IMG/VR virus record: IMGVR_UViG_3300045988_169823
Coordinates: 1-12,404 of that record
Reading direction: 5' to 3' (one strand)
Length of the DNA stretch: 12,404 nt
From: a virus
Below are positions 1 through 12,404 of the stretch, one piece after another. The notes beneath the pieces were generated by a model. That model ran no database searches and was not told the DNA's origin. It saw nothing but the letters and a program-made list of their open reading frames with translations. Both the position numbers and the translations under genes were made by a program. Every line of letters begins with the position of its first letter. Position 1 is the stretch's first letter.

Positions 1-249
1 GGGTATATCCCCCCCCTCCGTGAAAAAATTTTTCCCATTGTCAGAATATTCAGATTGCTTTAGTTCGCTAAAGTGCTAAAGTAAATTGACAGAATATTTG
101 TAATGCTTTAGTTTATTAAAGCGGTGAAGTGATATGCAAAATATTCTAACAATTCAAATCACCACTAAAATAGATGTTAGAAAATTCTAACAATAAATAT
201 CAATGACCGGATAAATGTTAGAATATTCTAACAATAATTAACAAAATAA
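1..249. repeat. Left inverted terminal repeat (ITR), 249 bp perfect; imperfect match continues to ~257
   Basis: 1..249 is the exact reverse complement of 12156..12404. It starts at window position 1 with GGGTATATCCCCCCCCTCCG. The first mismatch is at 250, then AGGTGGA matches again. Confidence 0.95.
141..240. repeat. Array of three ATTCTAACAAT(W) sites at ~40-bp spacing inside the ITR
   Basis: ATATTCTAACAATT at 141-154, GTTAGAAAATTCTAACAATA at 176-195 and GTTAGAATATTCTAACAATA at 217-236. The last is a perfect 16-bp palindrome, GTTAGAATATTCTAAC. Spacing is ~40 bp (~4 helical turns), and the array is mirrored in the right ITR. Confidence 0.85.
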
Positions 250-269
250 AAGGTGGAACTTGTCCACCT
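238..269 (-). terminator. Rho-independent terminator for the leftward gene, at the inner edge of the left ITR
   Basis: The hairpin stem is AGGTGGA (251-257) / TCCACCT (263-269) with an ACTTG loop. On the - strand it is followed by TTTTATTTTGTT. It lies 14 nt downstream of the stop codon of CDS 284..502 on the - strand. Confidence 0.7.
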
Positions 270-283
270 TGGATACACATTAT

Positions 284-502
284 TTAATATTTATCAACGT
301 TTAAATCGTACCATTTACCTTTAGTTCTATAACTAAATTCGTTTGTACCTACCTTGTTTAAAAGAACTGTATAAAACTCTTTATCTTGGTAAAATGAACT
401 AACTTGTCTTTTAGCTCCTAGCCAAGTTTTAGCGGTGAAACCTGTTTTCCACTTATCTCCATCGGTGGTTGTAATATTAGCAATAAAATTCACGACTTCC
501 AT
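284..502 (-). CDS. Hypothetical 72-aa basic Lys/aromatic-rich protein; the only minus-strand gene, adjacent to the left ITR
   Basis: ORF track entry 284..553 (-). The likely true start is the internal ATG (rc of 500-502), preceded by AGGAGG (rc of 511-516) at 8-nt spacing. It has its own promoter and terminator. Confidence 0.6.
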   Translation of the reverse strand: MEVVNFIANITTTDGDKWKTGFTAKTWLGAKRQVSSFYQDKEFYTVLLNKVGTNEFSYRTKGKWYDLNVDKY

Positions 503-543
503 AATAATAACCTCCTGTAATTTAGAACCTTTTCTATACTTAT

Positions 544-572
544 ATAATATCATATTAGGTGTTTAAATGCAA
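544..572 (-). promoter_or_regulatory. Leftward sigma70-like promoter (-35 TTGCAT, 17-bp spacer, extended -10 TGaTATTAT)
   Basis: The reverse complement of 544-572 reads TTGCAT-N17-TATTAT with TG at -15/-14, placed ~35 nt upstream of the RBS of CDS 284..502. Confidence 0.55.
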
Positions 573-615
573 CTGATTTTTGAAAATAAATAAATATAAA
601 AAATTTAAAATATTG

Positions 616-645
616 TTGACAAAAACTTAAAAAATCTGTTATTAT
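616..645 (+). promoter_or_regulatory. Early promoter P1 (-35 TTGACA, 18-bp spacer, extended -10 TGtTATTAT)
   Basis: Consensus TTGACA at 616-621; TG at 637-638; TATTAT at 640-645. It is divergent from the leftward promoter and sits ~50 nt upstream of the RBS of CDS 694..930. Confidence 0.65.
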
Positions 646-693
646 ATAATCATAGAAAACAAAAACACTTAAAACATAATAGGAGGTATTACC

Positions 694-930
694 ATGATAG
701 AATTTACAGTAGAAGAAATAACACCTATGGTTGGTTGTGTCTGCTGGTCAATCAAAGCAAGCACTGTTAGAGGTGCTAAGATAAAAGCGACACGCTATGC
801 TAAGAAAACATCCGATATAAATATTTTATGGAATGATGTTTGTGTTGCTTTTAAGAAAAACGGCAAATGGGTAGGTGGTCGTAATATTGAAGTAACAAAC
901 AATAACTACGTTAAAAAACATTTAGCATAA
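694..930 (+). CDS. Early protein, 78 aa, hypothetical
   Basis: ORF with AGGAGG at 681-686 and ATG at 694. It is the first gene downstream of P1. Confidence 0.6.
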   Translation: MIEFTVEEITPMVGCVCWSIKASTVRGAKIKATRYAKKTSDINILWNDVCVAFKKNGKWVGGRNIEVTNNNYVKKHLA

Positions 931-947
931 AACAGGAGGTCATTATT

Positions 948-1148
948 ATGGAAACAATAATCACTAAAAAACAGTTTTTTAGCACGTTAGAATTTTTTTC
1001 TAATGACAGTAGGTTTAAATTAACAATTAGTCAATATCTTTCACCTAAACAAGAACCTCTAATCATTTACTATCACTTTCAAAGTAAAAATAAAAAATTT
1101 ACATTGGTGCACCTTTTAGATAATAATAGTTACCGTTACACTGATTAA
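948..1148 (+). CDS. Early protein, 66 aa, hypothetical
   Basis: ORF with AGGAGG RBS (ACAGGAGGTCATTATTATG). A terminator follows. Confidence 0.55.
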   Translation: METIITKKQFFSTLEFFSNDSRFKLTISQYLSPKQEPLIIYYHFQSKNKKFTLVHLLDNNSYRYTD

Positions 1149-1155
1149 CAACCAG

Positions 1156-1180
1156 CAAGGCGAAAGCCCTTGTTTTTTTC
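1156..1180 (+). terminator. Rho-independent terminator (GNRA-looped hairpin + T7)
   Basis: CAAGGC-GAAA-GCCCTTG hairpin followed by TTTTTTT, immediately after the stop codon at 1146-1148. Confidence 0.75.
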
Positions 1181-1196
1181 ACCTGTAAACTTACCA

Positions 1197-1212
1197 CTTT
1201 AGCACACTAAAG
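1197..1212. promoter_or_regulatory. Operator-like palindrome CTTTAG-CACA-CTAAAG upstream of P2
   Basis: Perfect 6-bp inverted half-sites with a 4-nt spacer, 15 bp upstream of the P2 -35 box. The same CTTTAG-N4-CTAAAG motif occurs in the ITR at 58-73, with related palindromes at 76-81 and 104-121. Confidence 0.6.
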
Positions 1213-1226
1213 CAAAATATTTATTT

Positions 1227-1255
1227 TAAAAAACTATTGACAAAAAACCTTAAAT
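1227..1255 (+). promoter_or_regulatory. Early promoter P2 (-35 TTGACA, 17-bp spacer, -10 GATAAT)
   Basis: TTGACA at 1227-1232 and GATAAT at 1250-1255. The flanks resemble P1 (TATTGACAAAAA...TTAAA). Confidence 0.6.
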
Positions 1256-1292
1256 TTGAGATAATAAATAATGTAGTAAGGAGGTGACAAAA

Positions 1293-1535
1293 ATGAAAAT
1301 AACAGTTCCATGTACAGTACTAACCGAAATTACCGATAATAAATCTATTGGCAACAGGTTAGTAGTCGGTGAGAGAATCTCTCGCCGTATTGCTCAACAT
1401 TCAGCACCCGACAATGTAAAGGTTGTTGACGCTGAATATATCGGTGTAAAAGCTGATATAACTGCTGATGAATTTACAGACGAATTTAAAGGAAAAATTA
1501 AAACCTATTTAGAGAAGTTAATCGAGGAGAGATAA
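1293..1535 (+). CDS. Early protein, 80 aa, hypothetical (acidic C-terminus)
   Basis: ORF track 1284..1535 begins at a GTG that overlaps the RBS. The likely start is ATG 1293, 8 nt after AAGGAGG (1278-1284). Confidence 0.6.
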   Translation: MKITVPCTVLTEITDNKSIGNRLVVGERISRRIAQHSAPDNVKVVDAEYIGVKADITADEFTDEFKGKIKTYLEKLIEER

Positions 1536-1536
1536 T

Positions 1537-1890
1537 ATGTTTGAAGAACTGAATAAAAGTTTCGAGAGTGTTTTCACTGTAGAACCTCCCGAAAACGCCG
1601 TTTATTTGAAGTTGGTTGATATGAAACCCGATACCATGTATACCATGATTTCGTGTTTCGTAAATCCGAAATCTAAGTATGGCGAACACGGCGTATTAGG
1701 CGTGCAAGAAGGTCAGAACTTGTTTTGGTTGTCTTTGCCCCAGCACCTAACAGGTATCATCAAACAGATTTTGGCAACACCTGCTATGATAGAAGCAGTC
1801 AACAACGGTAAGGTTGGCTTCACGGTGGAAAGTTTCTTCTCTAAGAAGTATAATAAAGAAGGGCACACCATCAAATTTAAGGATTTATAA
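1537..1890 (+). CDS. Early protein, 117 aa; hypothetical, possibly a ssDNA-binding protein (weak)
   Basis: ORF with GAGGAGAG RBS, coupled to the upstream gene (TAA 1533-1535, ATG 1537). Size and position are like phi29 p5, but the function is not supported by clear motifs. Confidence 0.5.
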   Translation: MFEELNKSFESVFTVEPPENAVYLKLVDMKPDTMYTMISCFVNPKSKYGEHGVLGVQEGQNLFWLSLPQHLTGIIKQILATPAMIEAVNNGKVGFTVESFFSKKYNKEGHTIKFKDL

Positions 1891-1892
1891 GA

Positions 1893-1916
1893 TGTTTCAC
1901 GTGAAGCATTTTTATA
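1893..1916 (+). terminator. Weak terminator / CACGTG-centred palindrome
   Basis: ATGTTTCACGTGAAGCAT is a near-perfect 18-bp palindrome followed by TTTTTA, 3 nt after the stop at 1888-1890. Confidence 0.4.
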
Positions 1917-2024
1917 AGGCAAGGGATGAACCGAAATCACTATCCCTTAATCTATCCAAGAGAAGTTGTTAATTTTAGAATAATTTAGGTGTCGTAACAT
2001 TGGTTATACTTTATAGTTGAAATG

Positions 2025-2055
2025 GTTTTAGCTATTTCGCTGTTTCAGCTATTTC
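2025..2055. promoter_or_regulatory. Direct repeats GTTTyAGCTATTTC x2 (17-bp period) upstream of the embedded promoter
   Basis: GTTTTAGCTATTTC at 2025-2038 and GTTTCAGCTATTTC at 2042-2055, centred ~-55 and ~-38 relative to the TATAAT at 2085-2090. Confidence 0.5.
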
Positions 2056-2078
2056 ATAAAGTCTTTAATTCCTGCTAA

Positions 2079-2113
2079 GTGTGCTATAATAACATATAGC
2101 ACACTATTTTTTT
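2079..2113 (+). terminator. Strong rho-independent terminator with an extended -10 promoter (TGCTATAAT, 2082-2090) in its left arm
   Basis: Perfect 10-bp stem GTGTGCTATA (2079-2088) / TATAGCACAC (2095-2104) with a 6-nt loop, followed by TATTTTTTT (2105-2113). TGCTATAAT fits the extended -10 consensus TGnTATAAT. The RBS AGGAGGG (2114-2120) follows immediately. Confidence 0.7.
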
Positions 2114-2126
2114 AGGAGGGAACATC

Positions 2127-2759
2127 ATGATAGGAACTACGATTTTAAAGATAACCAGCAAGCTGGTAGGTGGCAGTAAAGGTAAAAGCGGTAAACTTAG
2201 TAAAGCAGAACAATTAAGAGATAATGCAAACAAGAAACGGATTTTAGCTAAAAAACGTGAGATACAATCACTTATGAATAAAGCTAACAAACGTTTGAAA
2301 CGCTTAGAACAAGCCAACCTAAAATCATCGCCAGCATATAAAGGTCTTTATAGAGAGGGTGGTTGGACGGAAAGTGAATCAAGGTTTGGTGTACGTGGTA
2401 AAACAGCCAAAGAGATAGATAGAGAATATTTACGAATTAAAAAATTTTTGGCTGATAAAACATCTACCGTTCGAGGTGCAACATTGATATTAAAACAAAC
2501 TGCTAAAAACGTAGGTCTGAAATATAAAACGGTTAGAGAATTGAGAGAAATATCCCCGAAATTTTTTGAATTAGCCAGTAAAGCCAAACAGTATTTAGAG
2601 AGTAGTAACAGACAAGCAGAAGCACTAGACTATAACAGGATTTTTGTTGCTATCAACCAGCTGACAAGGAAAGGTAAAATAGATTTTCAAGATACTAAAG
2701 ACGCAACCGAAAAAGTGAATGTATTAATCAATGAAATCAATGATATGATGGGTAAATAA
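2127..2759 (+). CDS. Putative terminal protein (basic, 210 aa) for protein-primed replication
   Basis: It lies immediately upstream of, and is coupled to, the pol B gene, as in phi29/Cp-1. It is Lys/Arg-rich with a strong AGGAGGG RBS. A loose resemblance to the phi29 TP N-terminal region rests on recall only. The call is positional and the priming residue is unknown. Confidence 0.5.
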   Translation: MIGTTILKITSKLVGGSKGKSGKLSKAEQLRDNANKKRILAKKREIQSLMNKANKRLKRLEQANLKSSPAYKGLYREGGWTESESRFGVRGKTAKEIDREYLRIKKFLADKTSTVRGATLILKQTAKNVGLKYKTVRELREISPKFFELASKAKQYLESSNRQAEALDYNRIFVAINQLTRKGKIDFQDTKDATEKVNVLINEINDMMGK

Positions 2760-2761
2760 CT

Positions 2762-4888
2762 ATGGTTAAATACGAGCAGGAATTAATAAAAAATAATAGC
2801 GAAAAAATAGTTTCTTGTTACGACTTTAGAATTAAAAAGATGGTCAAATATTATAACACGATTTTTTCTTTCGATATTGAAACGACTTCTACATATATAG
2901 ATGATGAAAAATTTGCTTTTATGTATGAGTGGACGTTCGGCAAACTGGATGATGTTTCACGCGAAACAATTTGCTACGGCAGAAGTTGGAACGATTTTTT
3001 AACTCTATATAATGAAATCGTTGCTGGATACGGTACTAATGAAGAAAAACGTTGTATAATATGGGTACATAATCTAGGTTACGAGTTCCAATTTATGCGT
3101 AAATATTTCAGTTTTTTAAATGTATTTTCAGTAGACGAACGAAAACCTATCAAAGCATTAACTGTTGATGGTATTGAGTTTAGAGACACTTATATCCTTT
3201 CAGCTATGTCACTAGCCAAGGTCGCTGATAACCTGTCAGAACATACAATTGAAAAAATGGTAGGCGATTTAGATTATAAGCTGGTTCGCACTGAAAAGAC
3301 AATATTAACAGATAAAGAACTCAAATATTGTGAAAATGATGTTAAAATAATTTTATATTATATAGCAGAACAAAAGGAACAATTTTACAACAATATAGGC
3401 AAAATACCATTAACAAATACAGGCAGAGTAAGAGACTATGTTAGAAACAATTGCTTGTATACGAATAAATCACATAAAAAAGCTAGTGCTGGAAAATTTA
3501 ATCGCTATCGAGCTTTAATGCAAGAACTCACTATAACTTCTCATGAATACTCACTATTAAAACAATGTTTTGCTGGTGGATATACACACGCTAACTCATA
3601 CTATGTAAATAAAAAGCTAGAAAATGTATCAAGTATTGATTTTACTTCCAGCTACCCGTTTGTTATGCTATCTGAAAAATTTCCAATGTCGGAACCTAGA
3701 AAATTAGAAAATTTAACACAAGAACAATTTGAAACGCTGGTTGACAATGAAAATCACGGTTTAATGATGAAAATTACTTTTCACGATATTGAAAGTAAAG
3801 TAATATGTGATGATTATATTAGCGAGCATAAATGCCAAAACACACATAATCAAATAGTTAATAATGGTCGCGTTCATTCAGCAGACTTTTTAACTTTAGT
3901 TGTAACCGATTTAGACTATAAAATTATTAAAGAATGTTATAGTTATTCAAGTCTTGAAATACATGAAATCTATGATTTTTATATGACGTATTTACCAAAA
4001 GCAATAATTAAATCAATTTTAGACTTGTATAATAAAAAAACAACGTTGAAAGGTGTAGAAGGTTATGAAACTGAATATATGGTTAGTAAGCAAATGCTTA
4101 ACTCAATATATGGTATGTGTGTTACCGATATTGTTAGGGATGAAATCTTATATAATGAAGAAGTCTGGGAAACTGAAAAAGCTGATATTGAAAAAAATGT
4201 AGAAAAATACAATACCAGCAAAAGACGTTTTCTTTATTATCCGTGGGGTGTGTGGGTAACTGCTTATGCTAGATTTAACCTATGGACAGGAATTTTAAAT
4301 ATTTATGATGATTATGTTTATTCAGATACTGACAGTATCAAGTTTTTAAACCTAAAAAAACATGAAAATTTTATAAATAAATATAATAAAAACGTAAAAA
4401 AGAAACTCAAAAAAATGTGTGATTTCATGAATATTGATTTTAAATTATGTGAACCTAAAACCAAAAAAGGTGAAAAAAAACTAATAGGTGTATGGGATTT
4501 TGAAGGTACTTATGATGTATTTAAAACGTTAGGTGCTAAGCGTTATTTAGTAAAAAAAGATGATAAATATTATTTAACGTTAGCTGGTTTATCTAAAAAA
4601 GCTGGTATGAATTATATCGTAGAAAAATGTGAAAATATAGAAAAAAATATTTTTAATTTTTTCAATAATAATATGTATATTCCAGCTAATAAAACAGGTA
4701 AAAACACACATACATATATAGATGATGTGATGGAAAAATGTATAACCGATTGTGATGGTAACAGAGTTTTTGTTAAATCTTTGTCTAGCATACACTTAGA
4801 AGAATGTGAGTTTAGCTTGTCAATGTCAGATAAATATTTAACATTTTTGAATGAAGTTCAGATGGGTATTTTAAGTAAGGAAGTGTAA
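2762..4888 (+). CDS. Protein-primed family B DNA polymerase (708 aa)
   Basis: Motifs Exo I FDIETTS; Exo II HNLGYEFQF (Glu at the usual Asp position); Exo III YCENDVKII; motif A DFTSSYP; motif B KQMLNSIYG; motif C YSDTDS; KxY LGAKRYL. A second in-frame ATG at 2840 (MVKYYNTIFSFDIETT) would place Exo I at residues 12-14 as in phi29, so the start is ambiguous. Confidence 0.9.
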   Translation: MVKYEQELIKNNSEKIVSCYDFRIKKMVKYYNTIFSFDIETTSTYIDDEKFAFMYEWTFGKLDDVSRETICYGRSWNDFLTLYNEIVAGYGTNEEKRCIIWVHNLGYEFQFMRKYFSFLNVFSVDERKPIKALTVDGIEFRDTYILSAMSLAKVADNLSEHTIEKMVGDLDYKLVRTEKTILTDKELKYCENDVKIILYYIAEQKEQFYNNIGKIPLTNTGRVRDYVRNNCLYTNKSHKKASAGKFNRYRALMQELTITSHEYSLLKQCFAGGYTHANSYYVNKKLENVSSIDFTSSYPFVMLSEKFPMSEPRKLENLTQEQFETLVDNENHGLMMKITFHDIESKVICDDYISEHKCQNTHNQIVNNGRVHSADFLTLVVTDLDYKIIKECYSYSSLEIHEIYDFYMTYLPKAIIKSILDLYNKKTTLKGVEGYETEYMVSKQMLNSIYGMCVTDIVRDEILYNEEVWETEKADIEKNVEKYNTSKRRFLYYPWGVWVTAYARFNLWTGILNIYDDYVYSDTDSIKFLNLKKHENFINKYNKNVKKKLKKMCDFMNIDFKLCEPKTKKGEKKLIGVWDFEGTYDVFKTLGAKRYLVKKDDKYYLTLAGLSKKAGMNYIVEKCENIEKNIFNFFNNNMYIPANKTGKNTHTYIDDVMEKCITDCDGNRVFVKSLSSIHLEECEFSLSMSDKYLTFLNEVQMGILSKEV

Positions 4889-4891
4889 AAA

Positions 4892-5977
4892 ATGAAGTAT
4901 TATAGTTTACGTGAAATTTTAAAGAAAAAAGCGACTTATAATGTGATAATCGGTGAAAGAAGTAACGGCAAAACATATTCAGTTTTAAAATATTCCGTTC
5001 AAAAATATGTTAAAACAGGAGGTCAAATAGCTATTGTCAGACGCTGGAGAGAGGATGTCATAGGACGTAGGGCAAGCGGGATTTTTAGTGCTTTAAATGT
5101 TGATGGTACAATTAAAAAAATAACAAATAATGAGTTTTCAGAAGTCTATTATTATGCAGGTAAATTTTACTTATCAAATATTGATGAAAACGGTAAGCAT
5201 ATATATTCAGATGAAAACTGTATAGGTTATACTTTTGCTTTAAGTGAAAACGAACATAATAAATCAATTTCTTATCCAAAAGTCACAACAATTTTTTTCG
5301 ATGAATTTTTAACAAAACATATTTATTTAGCTGATGAATTTGTGCTGTTTATGAACACTCTTAGCACAATTATTCGCCAGCGTGATAACGTTGAAATTTT
5401 CATGTGTGGTAACACTGTTAATAAATATTCTCCGTATTTCGCTGAAATGGGATTATCACATATACAAAAACAAAAACAGGGTACTATCGATGTTTATAGC
5501 TATGGTGATAGCAATTTAAAGGTTGCCGTTGAATACTGTGCAAGTTTAGCTAAACAAAAGAAAAATAATTTTTATTTTGCTTTTGATAACCCGAAACTAA
5601 ACATGATTAAGTCTGGTGTGTGGGAATTAGGCATCTTTCCACATTTACCGAAAAAATATAATAACAGGCAAATACTTTTTACCTACTTCATTATTTTTGA
5701 ACAGCAGATTTTTCAGTGTGAAATTATTGACTATAAAAATGGTAATTTAATTACTTTCATCCATTTAAAAACTTCTGAAATAAAAGATGAAAGTCATGAT
5801 TTAGTATACACGCTTGATGATAGTGAAAAGATGAATTATAATAAAAATATATTAAAACCAGCAACAAGTATTGGTGAAAAAATTAAATGGTTTTTTACAC
5901 ATGAAAAAGTATTTTTTCAAAATAACGATGTTGGCAACACAATAACTAACTATCTTAAAATTTGTGGAGGTATCTAA
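4892..5977 (+). CDS. DNA encapsidation ATPase, phi29 gp16-like (361 aa)
   Basis: Walker A GERSNGKT near the N-terminus, followed by the YVRRW/IVRRW-type motif. Walker B TTIFFDEF. Size and N-terminal layout match phi29 gp16. Confidence 0.85.
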   Translation: MKYYSLREILKKKATYNVIIGERSNGKTYSVLKYSVQKYVKTGGQIAIVRRWREDVIGRRASGIFSALNVDGTIKKITNNEFSEVYYYAGKFYLSNIDENGKHIYSDENCIGYTFALSENEHNKSISYPKVTTIFFDEFLTKHIYLADEFVLFMNTLSTIIRQRDNVEIFMCGNTVNKYSPYFAEMGLSHIQKQKQGTIDVYSYGDSNLKVAVEYCASLAKQKKNNFYFAFDNPKLNMIKSGVWELGIFPHLPKKYNNRQILFTYFIIFEQQIFQCEIIDYKNGNLITFIHLKTSEIKDESHDLVYTLDDSEKMNYNKNILKPATSIGEKIKWFFTHEKVFFQNNDVGNTITNYLKICGGI

Positions 5978-6159
5978 TGGAATATGCACAAGCAATATCT
6001 CAAATTGGTTTTCCAATTTCCATGTGTTTACTGCTTTTAAAGCGTATGCAGGAACAAGACAATTTATACCGTGAAAATGAAGGTAAGCTAAGGGATGTAA
6101 TTGAACGGAATACACTGGCAATTACTAAGTTATTAAGAGAAGGTGATGTTAATGAGTAA
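5977..6159 (+). CDS. Small membrane protein, 60 aa, one predicted TM segment with a charged C-terminus; holin candidate
   Basis: ATG at 5977 overlaps the ATPase stop (TAATG) and GGAGG lies 7 nt upstream. The hydrophobic stretch AISQIGFPISMCLLLL is followed by a K/R/E-rich tail. The ORF track TTG start at 5962 is rejected. Confidence 0.45.
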   Translation: MEYAQAISQIGFPISMCLLLLKRMQEQDNLYRENEGKLRDVIERNTLAITKLLREGDVNE

Positions 6160-7327
6160 AAATAAACTTTTTGACAAATTTTATAACTATCAAGATAAAA
6201 CAAAAAATATAAACACTTATGTTTTTAACTATCTGAATAAGACTAACTCGATGTTTAAATATCATAATCTGCCCGAATCAATCCCTGCTGATATGCTAGA
6301 ATCGTTTTTACAACGCAATGGCTATGTTTGTATAGCTAAGCATGAAAACACTCTCTATGCCTTTGTAGGAGGGTTAGGAGGTGAATTGGATGTTTACTAT
6401 CGACCAACAATTTGTACGGTAGCAAATCCAGCTTTAAATCTTAGCAAGGATTTTGTTATTGATAAAGATTGCATTATCATGAAAAATGATACAAATTTGC
6501 AAGGGCTTTTACCTATTATTTTGCGATATTCTTCAATGCTGGTTGAAAACGATATATCGATGGTGTTGGCTACATATAACACCCGTATACAGAAAATAGT
6601 GAGTGCTAGTGATGATGGTACAATAGCAAGTGCAAAAGAGTATTTATCACAAATAGTTAGCGGTAAACAGGGTATCATTGCTGATAATGCTTTTTTGAAA
6701 TCTTTAGATGTAAAAGATAGTTCAACAGATAATAAGATTATAGAAGAACTTATCAAGCAAAACCAGTATCTTAAATCGTCTATGCTAAACGAGGTTGGTT
6801 TACAAGCTAATACGAACTTGAAAAAAGAACGCTTAGTGTCTGCTGAAATTGAAAGCAATTCAGAGAGTTTATACCCGATTGTTGATGATATGCTAAAATG
6901 CAGAAAAAACGCACTAGAAAAAGTGAATGAAATGTTTGGTACTAACATAGAAGTTGAATTTAATTCCAGCTGGGACTTACGACCTTTAAATGGAATGTCA
7001 GTACACAACACGGATGATGAAATTGATATGAAAGATTTGGAGAGCGGAAACAATGAAAACGATGATAAAAAAACTTCTGCTGAAACTGATGGAGGAGACA
7101 GTGCAGAAGAAAATAGTGGAACTAGAAACACGGATAATGATGAAAATTCATTACAAGATAATGAAGAAAATGGAGGAAATGGAGAAGAAGAATCAAGCGA
7201 TGATAGAGAAGAAAACAGTGGAAATAATGAATCAACAGATGATGAAAATAAAGAATCTATAAAAGATGAAGAAAATGAAAACAATGAAAAAGACGAAAAC
7301 GAGGATGAAAAAGATGATAACAAATAA
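6152..7327 (+). CDS. Head-tail connector (portal/upper collar), phi29 gp10-like, with a ~106-aa polyacidic C-terminal extension
   Basis: Strong collinear similarity to phi29 gp10: NLPESIPADMLE..GYV, GGLGGELDVYY, NLKKERLVSAEIESNSE, LEKVNEMFGTNIEVEFN. Start taken as ATG 6152, 5 nt after the AAGGTGA SD. The track GTG 6143 and ATG 6146 remain possible. Residues from ~289 (nt 7007) to the end are D/E/N/S-rich and low-complexity. Confidence 0.85.
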   Translation: MSKNKLFDKFYNYQDKTKNINTYVFNYLNKTNSMFKYHNLPESIPADMLESFLQRNGYVCIAKHENTLYAFVGGLGGELDVYYRPTICTVANPALNLSKDFVIDKDCIIMKNDTNLQGLLPIILRYSSMLVENDISMVLATYNTRIQKIVSASDDGTIASAKEYLSQIVSGKQGIIADNAFLKSLDVKDSSTDNKIIEELIKQNQYLKSSMLNEVGLQANTNLKKERLVSAEIESNSESLYPIVDDMLKCRKNALEKVNEMFGTNIEVEFNSSWDLRPLNGMSVHNTDDEIDMKDLESGNNENDDKKTSAETDGGDSAEENSGTRNTDNDENSLQDNEENGGNGEEESSDDREENSGNNESTDDENKESIKDEENENNEKDENEDEKDDNK

Positions 7328-7664
7328 TGAATATGTTGATTTAATTCAAGAAGTTTTAAGCGAAAGAGATTTACTAGAACAATTAGTAGAAGAACTTTCA
7401 GAACTCCAGCAGGTCAGCATAAAACTAATAAGAATAAAAACGCTTAATAAACCAAACGCTGAATTTTATGATTTACTGAAAAATTTTAGAGAAGAAGAAA
7501 AAGACATTATTTCAATTCTTCATCTTTTAGATGATAACGACAAATATGGTTGGATAGATGATTATTATAAATATGAACGCTGGTATAATAGAATTATAAG
7601 TGGGATGTATAACAGAACTATGAAAGAACGATATAATAAAATTACAGGAGGGTGTTCAAAATGA
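7314..7664 (+). CDS. Hypothetical 116-aa helical protein
   Basis: Track ORF 7266..7664. Its N-terminus (MKKMKTMKK...) is an out-of-frame read of the connector polyacidic region. The likely start is ATG 7314, 8 nt after GAGGA, overlapping the connector stop by 14 nt. Confidence 0.55.
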   Translation: MITNNEYVDLIQEVLSERDLLEQLVEELSELQQVSIKLIRIKTLNKPNAEFYDLLKNFREEEKDIISILHLLDDNDKYGWIDDYYKYERWYNRIISGMYNRTMKERYNKITGGCSK

Positions 7665-8236
7665 TTTATGGTATAGATGTATCTGAAAATAACGGTTATG
7701 TTGATTGGCAAAGATTGAAAGAAACCAGCAACCTAAAATTTGCTATCATACGTTCTAGTTTCGGGTTTTCAACTGATAGCAGGTTTTTAGACAATATTTA
7801 TCATGCTTTAGAAAATGGTTTTAAGTGTGGAGCTTATCACTACTCTTATGCTTTAAATTCTGATGAAGCTATCAAAGAAGCTAGAACTATGAAAAGCATT
7901 ATAGAAAAAAGCGGTGTGTTGCTTGAATTACCCTGCTTCTTTGATATTGAAAATGATAGCTATAAAGCAAAAAACGGTTTTGAGTATACGCAAGAAAATG
8001 TTACCAATATTTGCCAAGCCTTTTTAGATGAAATTAAACCTTTAAATTGTGGCGTTTATGCCAACCTAGATTGGCTAACAAATTATGTTGATTGGCAAAA
8101 ATTAGGGTGTTCAATATGGTCAGCACAATATAATTCCAGCGATGATTTCAAAGGTTATATGTGGCAGTATACAGACAAATTGCATTTAATAGGCAAAAAT
8201 TTTGATGGTAATGTTTTATATTTAGATGAAATTTAG
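7661..8236 (+). CDS. Endolysin, GH25 muramidase catalytic domain only (191 aa)
   Basis: GH25 signatures: GIDVSENNGYVDW, FAIIRSS, GAYHYS, FFDIEND (the D-x-E region), GVYANLDW, WSAQY, MWQYT...FDGNV. AGGAGG at 7646-7651 and ATG at 7661. There is no cell-wall-binding domain. Confidence 0.85.
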   Translation: MIYGIDVSENNGYVDWQRLKETSNLKFAIIRSSFGFSTDSRFLDNIYHALENGFKCGAYHYSYALNSDEAIKEARTMKSIIEKSGVLLELPCFFDIENDSYKAKNGFEYTQENVTNICQAFLDEIKPLNCGVYANLDWLTNYVDWQKLGCSIWSAQYNSSDDFKGYMWQYTDKLHLIGKNFDGNVLYLDEI

Positions 8237-8247
8237 AAGGTGTTGAA

Positions 8248-8823
8248 ATGAACTTATATGAAAGATTTAATAAATCGTTATTGTGGGATAAAATTAATGA
8301 ATATCAAGCGTTTAGCTGGATTGATATTTTCGATAATGCAAGTCTTAATTTGTTGTGGTTAAATAAATACCATAGCAGGAGTTGTAATTCGTTGGCTGAG
8401 GATTTAGACGATGATAACATAGCTAAAATAATAGCTGGTATGTTTGTTTTTAATTGGAATATTGAATATAATTTATTAAAAGAAAATTGGTTAAAAAATG
8501 GCGATTTTTCAACGACTTATACAGAGAAAAAAACCGAGAAAAACACGGAAACAGGAACGGAAAATAACAACGTAAAAAATAATGTGTCTGCTTTTGATGA
8601 TGAAAATTATACAAATAAAGATGAAGAAGTTTCTACAAAAAATAATGAAAATAACGGCACTAATGACGTTGAAAGAACCTACACAACCAATGGTTATAAT
8701 TCAGCACAAATAAAGAATAAAATTGATTATGTAAAGTATTTGCAAAAAAATAACTTCTTTGATAATATAATAACAGATGTTAATAATTTACTGACTATGA
8801 ATATTGTTGTGGAGGATGATTAA
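8248..8823 (+). CDS. Hypothetical 191-aa protein directly upstream of the capsid gene (scaffold or decoration candidate)
   Basis: ORF with AAGGTG RBS. Trp-rich N-terminal half and a low-complexity N/T/E-rich C-terminal half. The scaffold role is a positional analogy to phi29 gp7 only. Confidence 0.5.
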   Translation: MNLYERFNKSLLWDKINEYQAFSWIDIFDNASLNLLWLNKYHSRSCNSLAEDLDDDNIAKIIAGMFVFNWNIEYNLLKENWLKNGDFSTTYTEKKTEKNTETGTENNNVKNNVSAFDDENYTNKDEEVSTKNNENNGTNDVERTYTTNGYNSAQIKNKIDYVKYLQKNNFFDNIITDVNNLLTMNIVVEDD

Positions 8824-8825
8824 AA

Positions 8826-10007
8826 ATGGAAGTAAAACAGATTTACACTTTAATGAATAATGTTACTAACGAGGTGCTAGGTCAAGAGGATTTAGTCAAA
8901 GAGGATTTGTCAAATGTAATTGATATTGGTACTGAAATTTTCAACCAAAATGCCGTTGATAATTATGTCAAGACTTTGGTAAATCACATCGGAAAAGTTA
9001 TTTTCGTTAATCGCCCATACGCTGGTAATGCACCTTCTGTTTTGATGGACGGCTGGGAGTTCGGAAGTGTACTAGAAAAAATCAATGCAGATATTCCCGA
9101 AGCTACCGAAAATGAGAGTTGGAATTTGGTTGATAAGCAGGAATATAAACAGGATATTTTTTATAAACCTTCTGTTAGTGCGAAATTCTTTAATAAAAAG
9201 GTTACTTTTGAAGTGCCTATGTCATTTACTGAAATGCAGGTAAAAGAGAGTTTCTCAAGTGCTGAGCAATTGAACGGCTTCTTGTCTATGATTTACAATG
9301 CCATTGATAAGTCAATGAGTATCAAGGTTGATAGTTTGATTATGAGAACTATCAATAATATGATTGGCGAAACTATCGCCCATGAATACGCTGATAGCAC
9401 GGATAGTACAGGTAAAAAGTTGGTTGCCTTATCGTCAAAAAGCGGTGTAAAAGCAGTTAATTTGCTTTTCTTGTATAATGCTAAATTCACTAAAACTTTG
9501 ACTGCTGAACAGGCAATTACCGACCCCGACTTTATTCGTTTTGCTAGCTATACCATTGGTTTGTACCGTGATAGACTTTCTAAGATTTCAACACTTTTCA
9601 ATGTTGGTGGTAAAGAACGTTTCACTTCTAAAGAATACTTGCACACAATCTTACTTAGCGACTTTATCGCTAGTGCTGATGTTTATCTCAATTCGGACAC
9701 TTTCCACGATGATTTTGTGAAACTTCCAACAGCTGAGCGTGTTCCTTATTGGCAAGGTTCGGGTACTGATTATAGCTTTAGCAAGACTTCTGATATTCAC
9801 ATTGCAACCGCTGGTGGTGTTGATGTAGAGGTTAGCGGGGTTATCGGCGTAATGTTCGATAGAGACGCTTTAGGTGTATGCAACACCAGCAAACGGGTAA
9901 CTACGAACTATAACGCTAAAGCTGAATTTTATAACAACTACTACAAATTTGACGCCAGCTATTTCAATGATTTGAATGAAAATTTCGTTGTATTCTTTGT
10001 TGAGTAA
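8826..10007 (+). CDS. Major capsid protein (393 aa)
   Basis: Largest structural ORF after the connector, with a GGAGGA RBS. A strong terminator directly follows, as expected for the most abundant structural protein. Loose resemblance to the phi29 gp8 N-terminal region. Call is based on size, position and context. Confidence 0.6.
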   Translation: MEVKQIYTLMNNVTNEVLGQEDLVKEDLSNVIDIGTEIFNQNAVDNYVKTLVNHIGKVIFVNRPYAGNAPSVLMDGWEFGSVLEKINADIPEATENESWNLVDKQEYKQDIFYKPSVSAKFFNKKVTFEVPMSFTEMQVKESFSSAEQLNGFLSMIYNAIDKSMSIKVDSLIMRTINNMIGETIAHEYADSTDSTGKKLVALSSKSGVKAVNLLFLYNAKFTKTLTAEQAITDPDFIRFASYTIGLYRDRLSKISTLFNVGGKERFTSKEYLHTILLSDFIASADVYLNSDTFHDDFVKLPTAERVPYWQGSGTDYSFSKTSDIHIATAGGVDVEVSGVIGVMFDRDALGVCNTSKRVTTNYNAKAEFYNNYYKFDASYFNDLNENFVVFFVE

Positions 10008-10019
10008 GAAGGGAGGAAG

Positions 10020-10047
10020 GGACGGTTTTTAACCGTCCTTTTTTATT
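10020..10047 (+). terminator. Rho-independent terminator after the capsid gene
   Basis: GGACGG(TT)-loop-(AA)CCGTCC hairpin followed by TTTTTTATT. The next ATG (10048) abuts the U-tract. Confidence 0.75.
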
Positions 10048-10479
10048 ATGAAAATTACTTTTTATAACACAAACTCACCTAATAATAAAATCCAAAAAGA
10101 GTTAAAAAATGCTTTGGAAAAAGATATTAAATTTAAAATGGAAGGTAGTATTTTAACACCTGTTTTGACTATTAAAAGTGAAACTTTTTTTAATTATAAT
10201 TACTGTTTTATTGAAAAGTTTAAACGTTATTATTTTATAAATGATATTGAAATTTATCCTAATAAAATATATATCTTGCATTTAGAAGTTGATGTTTTAA
10301 TGAGCTTCAAAGATGATATTTTAAATAGTCGGGCAACAATTAATCAAGAAACTGTTTTTAATAAATACTACAATTCAGATTATCAAAACTTAGAAAACTT
10401 TGAAGAACACATTTATAAAAGTGATGTAACATTAAGTAGTGAAAAGAATATTATTTTGTCTACGTTAGGAGGGTTATAA
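10048..10479 (+). CDS. Hypothetical 143-aa structural protein; possible homolog of the N-terminal domain of the phi29 tail knob
   Basis: ORF track. There is no proximal SD, but GGGAGGAAGG lies just 5' of the terminator hairpin. The segment YCFIEKFKRYYFINDIEIYPNKIYILHLEVDVLMSF resembles the phi29 gp9 N-terminal region as I recall it. Unverified. Confidence 0.5.
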   Translation: MKITFYNTNSPNNKIQKELKNALEKDIKFKMEGSILTPVLTIKSETFFNYNYCFIEKFKRYYFINDIEIYPNKIYILHLEVDVLMSFKDDILNSRATINQETVFNKYYNSDYQNLENFEEHIYKSDVTLSSEKNIILSTLGGL

Positions 10480-12113
10480 TGGCAGCTAATAGGTTGAGAT
10501 TGTATATTAAAGATAATAAATATGCTAATGTGGATATTAATGGTTCTGATTTATCATGGGTAAGCCAACCTGTTAATGCAGATACTTATAGTTTAGATAG
10601 TTCCGAATGTTATATTTTTTGGAGTGGCTTATCAAAAAATGAACATACTGACAGTTTTGAAATTGCTTTAGCTGGTAGAAAAATAACTGGTATTCAATGG
10701 TTGTCATTAAATAGAACTGATGTTACTGCTGATTTACAAAAATTTGGTATAATTCCATCGTTTCCAAATGGTCATTTCAAATTAAATATCCAATCATTGA
10801 AGTTGTTAAGTGATTTTATCACTAAGAATGACGGTAGCGTTTACACTGATTATAACTACATAAACTTTTCATTTGATACAGGTAAACAACAGTATAACAT
10901 AACTCAAAATCTGACTAATTGTGTATCTGATTTTACTTATGATAAAATAGATGAAGGCGATAATACATTAACCTTAACTTGTTCTGAAATGTGCTTTTTT
11001 GATGATGTGCCCACATTAACAATTGGCGAAACAGTCACTAATTTTACTTTAAACGATGATAAAAATATTGCAACATTAACGATTAATATAACGGGTGATT
11101 GTGTTGTAAATGCAACTGCTACGCAATATTATACTTATCAAGAAACCTTGACTAATTGTAAGTCGAATTTTACAGGTAAAACATTACTCAAAGAAGGTAC
11201 TACGACTTTTACATTTACTGCTGATAGTGGATATATCTTTGGTGAAAACGGAAGTATATATATCCAACCTGTTACAACAAGTATTGAAGGTAACGGAAAA
11301 AGTGTTTTAACTAAAACATATTTGATAGCTGGAAACACAAGAGTTACTTTATCCGCTATTAAAAAAGTTGAAACTTTAAGCACTTTTAATCATTTATATT
11401 TAGTTGATAATGATATTTTGAGTTCTTTATCAAAGAAACGCTATTATAATTCAAACGGTGTTGAAAGTGATTATGGACGTTTTATTACTGATTTATATAT
11501 CATACCTTTCAACATTGAGGATATTTTAAGTGAACAGGCAAATATTATTCTAGGGTTTTATGATACACAAATTCCAGCTACACAAATAAATGGTTACACT
11601 TATAATTTGAATTTAGGAAAAATAATTGTTAATGAAAATTATGGTAATGTTTACGATTATATTAATTCAAAAACGATTTTGCACGTTCCATTTTTTAATG
11701 TTATTGAACTACCTATTGAAAATGTTATGAACCAAACATTACAGTTAAATGTGATAGTTGACTTGTATGATGGTAGTGGCACTCTTAACATAGTTAGTTC
11801 TCTTGGTGGTTTAATTCATAGTGAAACATCTAATATTTTCAAACACATACCCTATATTCAGAGAACAACAGAAACAAGTTTCTTACAAACATTAAACACT
11901 ATTAATAATGATATTACTAATGCTTATTTAAGTATTATAAATAATGTTCCATATAATGTTATTGATGATTTTGGTAAAAACGTTGTTGAATATATGGAGA
12001 TTAAATCACTCACTAATTACTTTAAAATCAACGATATTAAAATGAATACATCAGCAACAAACGATGAAAAAAATAAAATCGTTGAATTGTTGAAAAATGG
12101 TTGCTTTATTTGA
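10479..12113 (+). CDS. Tail protein, 544 aa (tail knob / receptor-binding candidate)
   Basis: Its ATG overlaps the stop of the 143-aa ORF (TAATG at 10477-10481). It is the last and second-largest ORF, beta-rich in appearance, and followed by a terminator. Confidence 0.55.
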   Translation: MAANRLRLYIKDNKYANVDINGSDLSWVSQPVNADTYSLDSSECYIFWSGLSKNEHTDSFEIALAGRKITGIQWLSLNRTDVTADLQKFGIIPSFPNGHFKLNIQSLKLLSDFITKNDGSVYTDYNYINFSFDTGKQQYNITQNLTNCVSDFTYDKIDEGDNTLTLTCSEMCFFDDVPTLTIGETVTNFTLNDDKNIATLTINITGDCVVNATATQYYTYQETLTNCKSNFTGKTLLKEGTTTFTFTADSGYIFGENGSIYIQPVTTSIEGNGKSVLTKTYLIAGNTRVTLSAIKKVETLSTFNHLYLVDNDILSSLSKKRYYNSNGVESDYGRFITDLYIIPFNIEDILSEQANIILGFYDTQIPATQINGYTYNLNLGKIIVNENYGNVYDYINSKTILHVPFFNVIELPIENVMNQTLQLNVIVDLYDGSGTLNIVSSLGGLIHSETSNIFKHIPYIQRTTETSFLQTLNTINNDITNAYLSIINNVPYNVIDDFGKNVVEYMEIKSLTNYFKINDIKMNTSATNDEKNKIVELLKNGCFI

Positions 12114-12134
12114 TGATTAAATAATATGTATCTT

Positions 12135-12165
12135 AGGTGGGCGAATGTCCACCTATTATTTTGTT
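12135..12165 (+). terminator. Rho-independent terminator of the late operon at the inner edge of the right ITR
   Basis: AGGTGG-GCGAATGT-CCACCT hairpin followed by ATTATTTTGTT. The stem sequence is identical to the left-end hairpin (251-269) but the loop differs. Confidence 0.7.
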
Positions 12166-12404
12166 AATTATTGTTAGAATATTCTAACATTTATCCGGTC
12201 ATTGATATTTATTGTTAGAATTTTCTAACATCTATTTTAGTGGTGATTTGAATTGTTAGAATATTTTGCATATCACTTCACCGCTTTAATAAACTAAAGC
12301 ATTACAAATATTCTGTCAATTTACTTTAGCACTTTAGCGAACTAAAGCAATCTGAATATTCTGACAATGGGAAAAATTTTTTCACGGAGGGGGGGGATAT
12401 ACCC
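12156..12404. repeat. Right inverted terminal repeat (ITR), 249 bp
   Basis: Reverse complement of 1..249, ending exactly at the last base of the window (...GGGGGGGGATATACCC). Confidence 0.95.

Follow-up and report, generated by a model that had tools for sequence, protein, structure and literature searches.

The window, that is, the whole 12,404-nucleotide stretch analysed here (IMG/VR record IMGVR_UViG_3300045988_169823, positions 1 to 12,404), is very probably the complete 12.4-kb linear double-stranded DNA genome of an uncultured protein-primed podophage from animal gut or sewage, belonging to the clade of small phages around the genus Astrithrvirus (the Astrithrvirus-like clade). A preliminary description of the same DNA had read it as the entire genome of a phi29-related protein-primed podophage with perfect 249-bp inverted repeats exactly at both ends, and had further suggested that it is unusually small and may represent a new minimal lineage. 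The first part of this reading is borne out by the inverted terminal repeats (ITR), by the alignment of the termini with those of isolated phages and by the gene families, whereas the second part is not, as set out below. The find is a modest one: the smallest class of tailed phages gains a further complete genome, drawn from a low-GC branch that is uncultured (GC content of the window, 30.4%), and the value of the find is comparative.

The 249 nt at the left end are the exact reverse complement of the right end. The first mismatch in the pairing falls at position 250, the next seven bases pair again, and weaker complementarity continues to about position 288; a repeat search returns arms of 257 nt (1-257 / 12148-12404) because the single mismatch at 250 is followed by seven matching bases. 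Both ends begin 5'-GGG, giving the window the linear form, the ITR and the reiterated terminal base that mark the phi29-related group. Over about its first 20 nt (GGGTATATCCCCCCCCTCCG), the window can be aligned with the termini deposited for Acinetobacter phage Phanie (GGGTTATCCGCCCCCCTCC) and Pectobacterium phage DU_PP_III (GGGATATCCGCCCCCCCCCC). The terminal sequence GGGnTATC..CCCCCC is common to all three, such that a contig from gut or sewage shares a conserved terminal origin sequence with phages isolated from Acinetobacter and Pectobacterium. GGG is likewise the start of an IMG/VR relative whose ITR measures 242 nt, and inverted terminal repeats of at least 55 nt are present in 53 of 80 IMG/VR relatives, with contigs of 10.9-13.1 kb. 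No coding sequence lies between the stop codon of the tail gene (12113) and the right ITR. The ends of the window look like real genome termini and not like contig breaks.

It is extremely improbable that the window is instead an assembly artefact, produced by fold-back chimeric reads or cut from a larger or circular replicon. Assemblers can generate inverted terminal repeats, and the repeats of some relatives are exactly 55, 99, 119 or 141 nt long, apparently limited by k-mer length. However, assemblers do not usually work with a k-mer length of 249 nt, the outermost 20 nt agree with the termini in the records of two isolates, terminator-like hairpins are placed symmetrically at both inner ITR boundaries, and the gene set is complete and matches those of isolates end to end. 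Several other samples moreover yielded, in independent assemblies, near-identical genomes that share the gene order and have capsid proteins 98% identical to that of the window, and three sources (JGI/IMG, Logan, ENA) list the tail protein belonging to the 12,404-bp record.

Some relatives, which are referred to by L numbers among the loci fetched from metagenomes, carry foreign sequence at their ends. Adaptor remnants (...CTCTTCCGATCT; …GTGTGCTCTTCCGATCT) abut the terminus AAAGGTAC... in the first bases of L010, L016, L036, L042 and L071, and in L079 a Nextera-like sequence is fused to the same terminus; the remnants ...CTCTTCCGATCT are presumably Illumina adaptor. As these remnants stand directly at the termini, the reads of these relatives began at physical DNA ends. 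The ends of the adaptor-bearing relatives begin AAA, whereas those of the window, L008, Phanie and DU_PP_III begin GGG. Adaptor remnants in public IMG/VR contigs are, in themselves, contamination.

The gene families point to the same assignment. The polymerase, ATPase, connector, capsid and GH25 lysin genes named in the preliminary description were all recovered by profile searches (PF03175, PF05894, PF05352, PF25622 and PF01183, respectively; Table 1), the matches to PF05894, PF05352 and PF25622 all lying above gathering scores, and every polymerase and ATPase motif that it had quoted is present in the translations. The polymerase contains YSDTDS, KQMLNSIYG, DFTSSYP, FSFDIETT and YCENDV (covering Exo I and III, Kx3NSxYG and YxDTDS), has the phi29 polymerase (1xhx, E 1.6e-8) as its only sequence match in PDB, and is 24% identical to phi29 gp2. 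The ATPase carries GERSNGKT and IFFDEF and is 28% identical to the N-terminal domain of phi29 gp16. A Tectiviridae-like combination of a double-jelly-roll major capsid protein (MCP) and an FtsK-type ATPase is ruled out by the PF25622 MCP and the PF05894 ATPase of the window.

Immediately upstream of the polymerase gene lies the gene for a 210-aa protein, which we infer to be the terminal protein (TP). It is 38-45% identical to the product of the gene upstream of the polymerase gene in astrithr, Phanie, DU_PP_III and K58 g2, and this position is conserved in many relatives. The protein is predicted to be all-alpha (AF2 pLDDT 83), with an invariant KTSTVRG-type motif (T-S-T-V-R) in the alignments, and its counterpart is named terminal protein in PMC11476376. 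Downstream of the lysin gene, a 191-aa protein of the structural module was not connected to other phages by BLAST, whereas aligning the profile of the window's clade with that of the isolates' clade by hhalign identified it as the orthologue of astrithr gp07 and Phanie gp7 (probability 99.7%, E 3.8e-26). As a candidate for the phi29 lower collar (gp11) or scaffold (gp7) it gave neither a sequence-level signal nor a PDB match. By elimination, it may be the "shortened lower collar" of PMC11476376, with a scaffold role as the alternative.

The best protein matches of the window all come from small genomes (10.4-11.9 kb), namely those of Salmonella phages astrithr (11,569 bp), Astrid (11,713 bp), assan (11,578 bp) and S.Kent 1-2-1 (11,162 bp), Enterobacter phage Entb_47 (11,593 bp), Phanie (Aci01-2-Phanie, OX458330; 11,885 bp), DU_PP_III (MF979562; 11,504 bp), Shigella phage vB_SHGBLB0004 (11,151 bp) and Vibrio phage K58 g2 (10,390 bp; an incomplete record in which the polymerase coding sequence runs off the end). 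At 12,404 bp, the window is larger than all of them. The order of the core, counted as ten genes (TP-like protein, polymerase, ATPase, small protein, connector, gp07-like protein, capsid protein, N-terminal part of the tail knob, C-terminal part of the knob with Ig-like domains), is the same in the window and in the isolates. Placement was examined with quick, identity-based neighbor-joining trees of the polymerase and the MCP. In the polymerase tree, the 13-member low-GC clade of the window and four isolates form one group (17 of 100 sequences), whereas in the MCP tree the isolates form a clade of their own within a 98-member group that includes the window.

This very group of phages has already been described. 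Evseev et al. (2024; PMC11476376) place it in a cluster 23 (Astrid/astrithr/assan, DU_PP_III and Phanie) and a cluster 30, and report genomes of "typically about 11-14 kbp" with a phi29-like polymerase, a terminal protein and a single-stranded DNA-binding protein (SSB), together with an MCP, an upper collar protein and a lower collar protein that is shorter than its phi29 counterpart. In the same source, the tail knob is the product of two genes and has Ig-like domains inserted into it, and genes for tail fibres or spikes are lacking. The size and core synteny of the window agree with the Astrithrvirus-like clade, and its knob is likewise split, with Ig-like domains in the second gene.

Several observations weigh against this placement. 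The TP assignment, to begin with, has no direct support: the candidate shows no match to the phi29 TP (gp3) by PDB profile search, hhalign or fold, and its Foldseek matches in BFVD, all uncharacterised, belong to gut "Podoviridae sp." and, in one case, to "Tectiviridae sp.". A megablast search of the whole window against 50,697 phage records returned no nucleotide match to any described phage. At the left end, a single leftward and four rightward small open reading frames (ORFs) are unrelated to the early genes of the isolates. The lysin is of the GH25 type and lies between the connector and gp07-like genes, whereas in the isolates a CHAP/amidase-type enzyme is encoded downstream of the tail gene. 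The Firmicute-like lysin and the 30% GC indicate that the biology of the window may differ from that of the isolates. Further, no packaging RNA (pRNA) was found in the window by Rfam (E <= 1), a search that a divergent pRNA might escape, and the packaging motor may thus differ from that of phi29. In PMC11476376, pRNA is described as characteristic only of phi29 and related Bacillus phages.

Some of the same features would be expected if the window were a new minimal phi29-like lineage distinct from all described ones. The megablast search did not detect the close whole-genome identity to a described phage that the preliminary description had named as refuting its proposal, and the left-end module lacks any family assignment, the GH25 gene occupies a new position, the GC content is 30%, and a 236-nt non-coding element is present. 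Nevertheless, we consider this reading very unlikely. The ten core genes are homologous to and syntenic with those of isolates smaller than the window, with 56-60% identity in the capsid protein and 46-51% in the polymerase; the group and its small size are already published (PMC11476376); and other small relatives have been isolated too, such as 12.3-kb Amedibacillus phages. The proposal had rested on the premise that described phi29-like phages measure 16.5-20 kb, which is outdated given isolates of 10.4-11.9 kb and the 11-14 kbp of the published group, and the conclusion of a new minimal lineage falls with it. The differences from the isolates are module exchanges common between phage genera and do not amount to a new kind of phage.

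The absence of nucleotide similarity places the window outside the genus Astrithrvirus, the identities at protein level being 26-60%. Genera are, in the practice of the International Committee on Taxonomy of Viruses, delimited at about 70% nucleotide identity over the genome. The window is probably a new uncultured member of the described group, at genus level or above, for which a new genus or subfamily beside Astrithrvirus would be expected. It shows the ten genes that form the invariant core of these mini-phages, whereas the early module, the lysin and the non-coding elements are subject to free exchange.

Phanie resembles the window in being linear, in its ITR (171 bp in the record), in its nearly identical terminus and in the same core order, including gp7, gp9 (N-terminal part of the knob) and gp10 (Ig-like domains and C-terminal part), with identities of 45% (TP), 51% (polymerase), 56% (ATPase), 40% (connector) and 59% (MCP); it differs in that its small early genes lie at the right end and run leftward, an amidase-type lysin follows the tail gene, gp10 has 854 aa, GC is 37% and the host is Gram-negative. 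Astrithrvirus (astrithr, Astrid and assan; 11.6-11.7 kb) shares the core synteny (MCP 60%, ATPase 60%, polymerase 51% and TP 38% identical), the gp07 orthologue and a small protein with one transmembrane segment between ATPase and connector, whereas its four leftward right-end genes are unrelated to those of the window, its lysin is of the CHAP type, its GC is 40%, and its deposited records have an 83-bp terminal repeat with termini unlike those of the window. DU_PP_III has an annotated 219-bp terminal repeat, a similar terminus and the same core (MCP 59%, polymerase 50%), but its lysin is of another family and is encoded 3' of the tail gene, its right end carries a leftward gene, and its GC is 37%. 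Across the isolates, two to four small leftward genes lie at the right end, where the window has none, and GC is 37-40%. The preliminary description was correct that only one gene runs leftward (284-553, one of the 16 ORFs treated as genes) and that right-end early genes are lacking, the latter being a genuine contrast to the isolates. The hosts of all isolates are Gram-negative bacteria, whereas the lysin of the window is most like those of Firmicute phages.

More distant phages share families but not organisation. Phi29 itself (Salasmaviridae, 19,282 bp) is linked to the window by the polymerase (24%), the gp16 ATPase (28%), the connector and MCP families and homology of the tail knob, but its ITR is 6 bp long, early genes occupy both of its ends, its tail knob is the product of a single gene, and it has pRNA, a scaffold protein, head fibres, appendages (gp12) and a tail lysin (gp13); none of these features was found in the window. 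The Amedibacillus phages AD70P2/P3 (12.3 kb, filed under Guelinviridae) and the gut contigs MT836125/MT836155 are of similar size and have the same polymerase, ATPase, connector and MCP families (23-34%); they are, however, much more distant from the window and differ in gene order.

The tail genes bear on how the phage infects. The profile of the 143-aa family matches the N-terminal regions of tail knobs with modest scores (phage C1 gp12, 4eo2, E 2.3e-4; phi29 gp9, 5fb4, E 0.021; Andhra, 8egs_Y, E 0.032), and hhalign aligned the protein with residues 90-131 of phi29 gp9 (E 8.5e-5). The distal tail protein has two beta-sandwich (Ig-like) domains at about residues 138-295 and a conserved C-terminal tail-knob part (304-544), and the top match of its model is the Ig-like 4z7a, followed by the C1 tail knob; 4z7a is also given as the top Ig-like match of Phanie gp10 in PMC11476376. 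Among relatives, the distal tail protein varies from 346 to 981 aa, its N-terminal and central part being hypervariable even among close relatives, and genomes with 98% identical capsids differ in it (544 aa in the window vs 346 aa in L089). This is the pattern expected of a specificity determinant, and the protein would likely contact either the host or a helper phage's tail. With all ORFs accounted for, none matched a family of tail fibres, spikes or appendages, and such an absence of match is weak evidence.

It is possible, though we lean against it, that the window represents a helper-dependent satellite of the Phanie type, which hijacks tails in that it builds its own capsid and stubby tail yet becomes infectious only on the tail of an unrelated co-infecting phage. 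The helper dependence of Phanie was demonstrated by Pourcel et al. (2024; as described in PMC11476376 and PMC13587820), and the window has the same structural gene set, in which the knob is split and bears lateral Ig-like domains and genes for fibres, spikes or appendages are absent. The hypervariability of the distal tail protein is what a specificity module should show, and the record name "Vibrio phage K58 g2" may hint at a second genome in one lysate. However, helper dependence has been demonstrated for one isolate only, Astrid is called a non-satellite in a preprint (bioRxiv 10.1101/2025.06.18.659913), the Ig-like domains and variable N-terminus could themselves bind a host receptor, and no helper is identifiable from the window sequence.

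More speculatively, and with rather little confidence, we suggest that the window may belong to a very abundant uncultured gut/sewage radiation of Phanie-like podophages that have their own capsid, a stub tail and no receptor-binding fibres, are infectious only via a helper tail, and possibly have a low-GC Gram-positive host. If so, tail piracy by autonomously replicating mini-phages would be common in gut viromes and not a single Acinetobacter curiosity, and the split tail knob would not be restricted to phages of Gram-negative bacteria; should the dependence seen in Phanie hold for this branch too, satellites would account for thousands of such contigs from the gut.

The relatives are numerous in metagenomes, with more than 8000 capsid relatives, many on contigs of 11-12.4 kb. 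Relatives stem from IMG/VR, from assemblies of Logan and ENA, and from bins of metagenome-assembled genomes (MAGs) of gut, rumen and faeces. The name of an ENA record (MUNK18-1...) suggests sewage, by our own reading of that name. Whole 11-13 kb phage genomes of the group (loci L091-L111) sit in MAGs of Bacilli, Clostridia, Treponema, Melainabacteria, Methanobrevibacter and others. These placements are probable binning errors and misleading for host prediction; as each of the MAG contigs is an entire phage genome, nothing on the host can be learned from the bins.

The placement in MAGs of many taxa might also be read to mean that the window is a linear protein-primed plasmid or phage-plasmid and not a lytic virus, as phi29-related sequences have been annotated as plasmids of Enterococcus and Clostridium (PMC11476376). 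We regard this as highly improbable. Pfam and PHROG scans of the window ORFs detected no partition, toxin-antitoxin or repressor gene and, among the 16 selected ORFs, neither integrase nor transposase, whose absence the preliminary description had already remarked; the genome consists almost wholly of replication, virion and lysis genes, and whole phage contigs in unrelated taxa, archaea included, are typical of mis-binning. As to the host, the relatives of the GH25 lysin and the 30% GC give a weak hint that the branch of the window may infect Gram-positive bacteria. The nearest homologues of the lysin come from phages and plasmids of gut Firmicutes at 30-37% identity, and assigning a host from these neighbours was rejected as too distant (<= 37%).

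Taken together, we propose that this member of the Astrithrvirus-like clade could work as follows. At both ITR ends, the TP-like protein would serve as primer for the family-B polymerase, and the terminal GGG reiteration would permit a sliding-back step there; phi29 and PRD1 are known to initiate by sliding back at reiterated terminal bases. The small early genes would be driven by two strong sigma-70-like promoters of the left end, the hairpin with its T-run at 2078-2105 could separate early from late expression, and a single rightward operon from the TP gene to the tail gene would stop at the hairpin on the ITR boundary. The gp16-type ATPase would package the TP-DNA through the connector into a small phi29-type capsid, the gp07-like protein and the two-gene knob would form the short tail, and the GH25 muramidase and the small membrane protein would bring about lysis. 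Infection would proceed either directly via the stub tail or via a borrowed helper tail, as in Phanie.

Table 1. Features of the window, with identities of the encoded proteins to those of the isolated phages.
Feature	Position	Strand	Evidence or remark	Identity to isolates
Left ITR, putative replication origin	1..249	.	starts 5'-GGG; exact reverse complement of right end	
Terminator-like hairpin, inner boundary of left ITR	270-250	-	mirror of 12134-12155	
Sole leftward ORF, 89 aa	284..553	-	early gene, no family match	
Divergent promoter-like region	593..645	.	consensus match only	
Small early ORF, 78 aa	694-930	+	no family match	
Small early ORF, 66 aa	948-1148	+	no family match; homologues only in closest genomes	
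Terminator-like hairpin after the two small early ORFs	1154-1174	+	3' of ORF 948-1148	
Third copy of the ITR CTTTAG..CTAAAG repeat	1188-1233	+	directly 5' of second promoter-like site	
Small ORF, 83 aa	1284..1535	+	likely start ATG 1293; 83-91% identical in L088, L089	
117-aa protein	1537..1890	+	upstream of TP/polymerase in most metagenomic relatives	
236-nt non-coding element	1891..2126	+	palindrome, well-folding region, hairpin with T-run	
Candidate terminal protein, 210 aa	2127..2759	+	immediately 5' of polymerase	38-45%
Protein-primed family-B DNA polymerase, 708 aa	2762..4888	+	PF03175 E 3.9e-11, phrog_1907 E 2.3e-75; 50-51% identical to the isolates compared gene by gene	46-51%
gp16-type DNA packaging ATPase, 361 aa	4892..5977	+	PF05894 E 3.8e-21, phrog_2150 E 5.1e-34	54-60%
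Small protein, hydrophobic N-terminal segment	5962..6159	+	about 60 aa from ATG 5977	27-39%
Connector / upper collar (portal)	6143..7327	+	PF05352 E 7.8e-20, phrog_2038 E 5e-44	37-43%
100-aa ORF (within ORF 7266-7664)	7362..7664	+	no Pfam match	
Single-domain GH25 muramidase (endolysin)	7652..8236	+	PF01183 E 7.7e-22, phrog_291 E 1.9e-34	
191-aa structural-module protein	8248..8823	+	orthologue of astrithr gp07 / Phanie gp7	
phi29-type (HK97-fold) major capsid protein	8826..10007	+	PF25622 E 3.8e-52	56-60%
Tail-knob N-terminal part, separate 143-aa protein	10048..10479	+	counterpart of Phanie gp9	26-34% (~145-aa protein)
Distal tail protein, 544 aa	10479..12113	+	variable N-terminal 134 aa; Ig-like domains; C-terminal knob part	27-32% (C-terminal half)
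Terminator-like hairpin 3' of tail gene, inner boundary of right ITR	12134..12155	+	mirror of 270-250	
Right ITR	12156..12404	.	249-nt reverse complement of left end	

The left end of the window holds the early module, whose small ORFs gave no family above noise in the Pfam and PHROG scans. The leftward ORF, of which L088 has a homologue with 59% identity, probably starts at the ATG at 503-501, after AGGAGG, giving about 72 aa. A ribosome-binding site with its start context, ACAGGAGGTnATTATTATGGAA, occurs in near-exact (95%), inverted copies at 497-518 and 932-953, serving the leftward ORF and the ORF at 948, respectively, and this duplication suggests that the leftward ORF starts at 503-501 and not at 553. 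In the divergent promoter-like region, a plus-strand site at 616-645 (TTGACA-18-TATTAT, 11/12 with TG) is accompanied by a minus-strand site at 622-593 (TTGTCA-18-TATATT); a second strong promoter-like site lies at 1237-1265 (TTGACA-17-GATAAT), also by consensus match.

The left ITR contains two 48-nt repeats (37-82 and 85-130) with CTTTAG..CTAAAG palindromes. Repeats of this kind (46-48 nt, with CTTTAG(N4-5)CTAAAG) are found twice per ITR (37-130 and 12275-12368) and once, inverted, at 1188-1233, and they may be a candidate operator common to the genome ends and an early promoter. The left ITR further holds two 34-nt repeat units 41 nt apart (170-203 and 211-244), each with the 18-bp palindrome TGTTAGAAWWTTCTAACA; in both ITRs this palindrome takes the forms TGTTAGAATATTCTAACA / TGTTAGAAAATTCTAACA (139-244 and 12161-12266), with a partial third copy of the 34-nt unit.

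A different, 16-bp palindrome, TGTTTCACGTGAAACA, characterises the gut relatives. Allowing up to two mismatches, it occurs 292 times in the window and 111 loci, against 0.35 expected from shuffles. In most gut relatives (loci L008-L103) it forms tandem pairs 28 or 42 bp apart within both ITRs, and one clade has an additional single internal site near 4.9-5.1 kb. The window has it at 1893-1908, as TGTTTCACGTGAAGCA, just after the stop codon of the 117-aa gene, and at 2953-2968, inside the polymerase gene, with none in the ITR; the isolates lack it. It looks like a putative clade-wide protein-binding site. The outer TGTT..AACA bases and the spacing of the window's own ITR palindromes match the 42-bp pairs of the relatives, which suggests a swapped operator specificity at an equivalent position in the ITR.

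Among the early proteins, the 117-aa protein is the sole widely conserved member, with tblastn matches in 74 of the fetched loci. It has no PDB match and no homologue among the small proteins of the isolates, and as a phi29 SSB (gp5), or as kin of the small early proteins of the isolates, it gave no signal. We infer that it is a candidate replication accessory or DNA-binding protein.

The 236-nt element between this gene and the TP gene folds better than all 200 shuffles (z = -3.83) and has 97% mean column identity in the alignment of the window, L088 and L089, with no Rfam match. Across the five genomes in which it occurs (the window, L088, L089, L115 and L116), one compensatory and several wobble-compatible changes were observed, with a few broken pairs. 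A hairpin at 2078-2105, with an 11-bp stem and a following T-run, contains an extended -10-like sequence, TGCTATAAT, and lies immediately before the TP gene. The element is confined to these five closest genomes: L090 and L113, whose TP and polymerase are 64-66% identical, are without it, and L012 has a small helix-turn-helix-like ORF in the gap. It may be a lineage-specific leader or regulatory RNA; a role as a clade-wide pRNA was rejected on this distribution.

In the late operon, the lysin gene lies in the same position, between the connector and gp07-like genes, in L008, L009, L088-L090 and L115. The small hydrophobic protein (5977-6159) is the sole holin candidate, based on a weak PHROG match (E 0.0015); it is 27-39% identical to its counterparts in astrithr and K58 g2, and corresponds in position to Astrid ORF005, which is annotated as transmembrane in its record. 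The 100-aa ORF is present only in the closest relatives, where it is 89% identical and called as a gene in L088, L089 and L115. The C-terminal tail of the connector (about 7000-7327) is long, acidic and of low complexity, being rich in D, E, N and S and encoded by 21-42-nt imperfect repeats (D8, D9). Over the connector gene runs a minus-strand ORF (6397-7323, 308 aa) with a serine/leucine-rich translation, which is almost certainly spurious.

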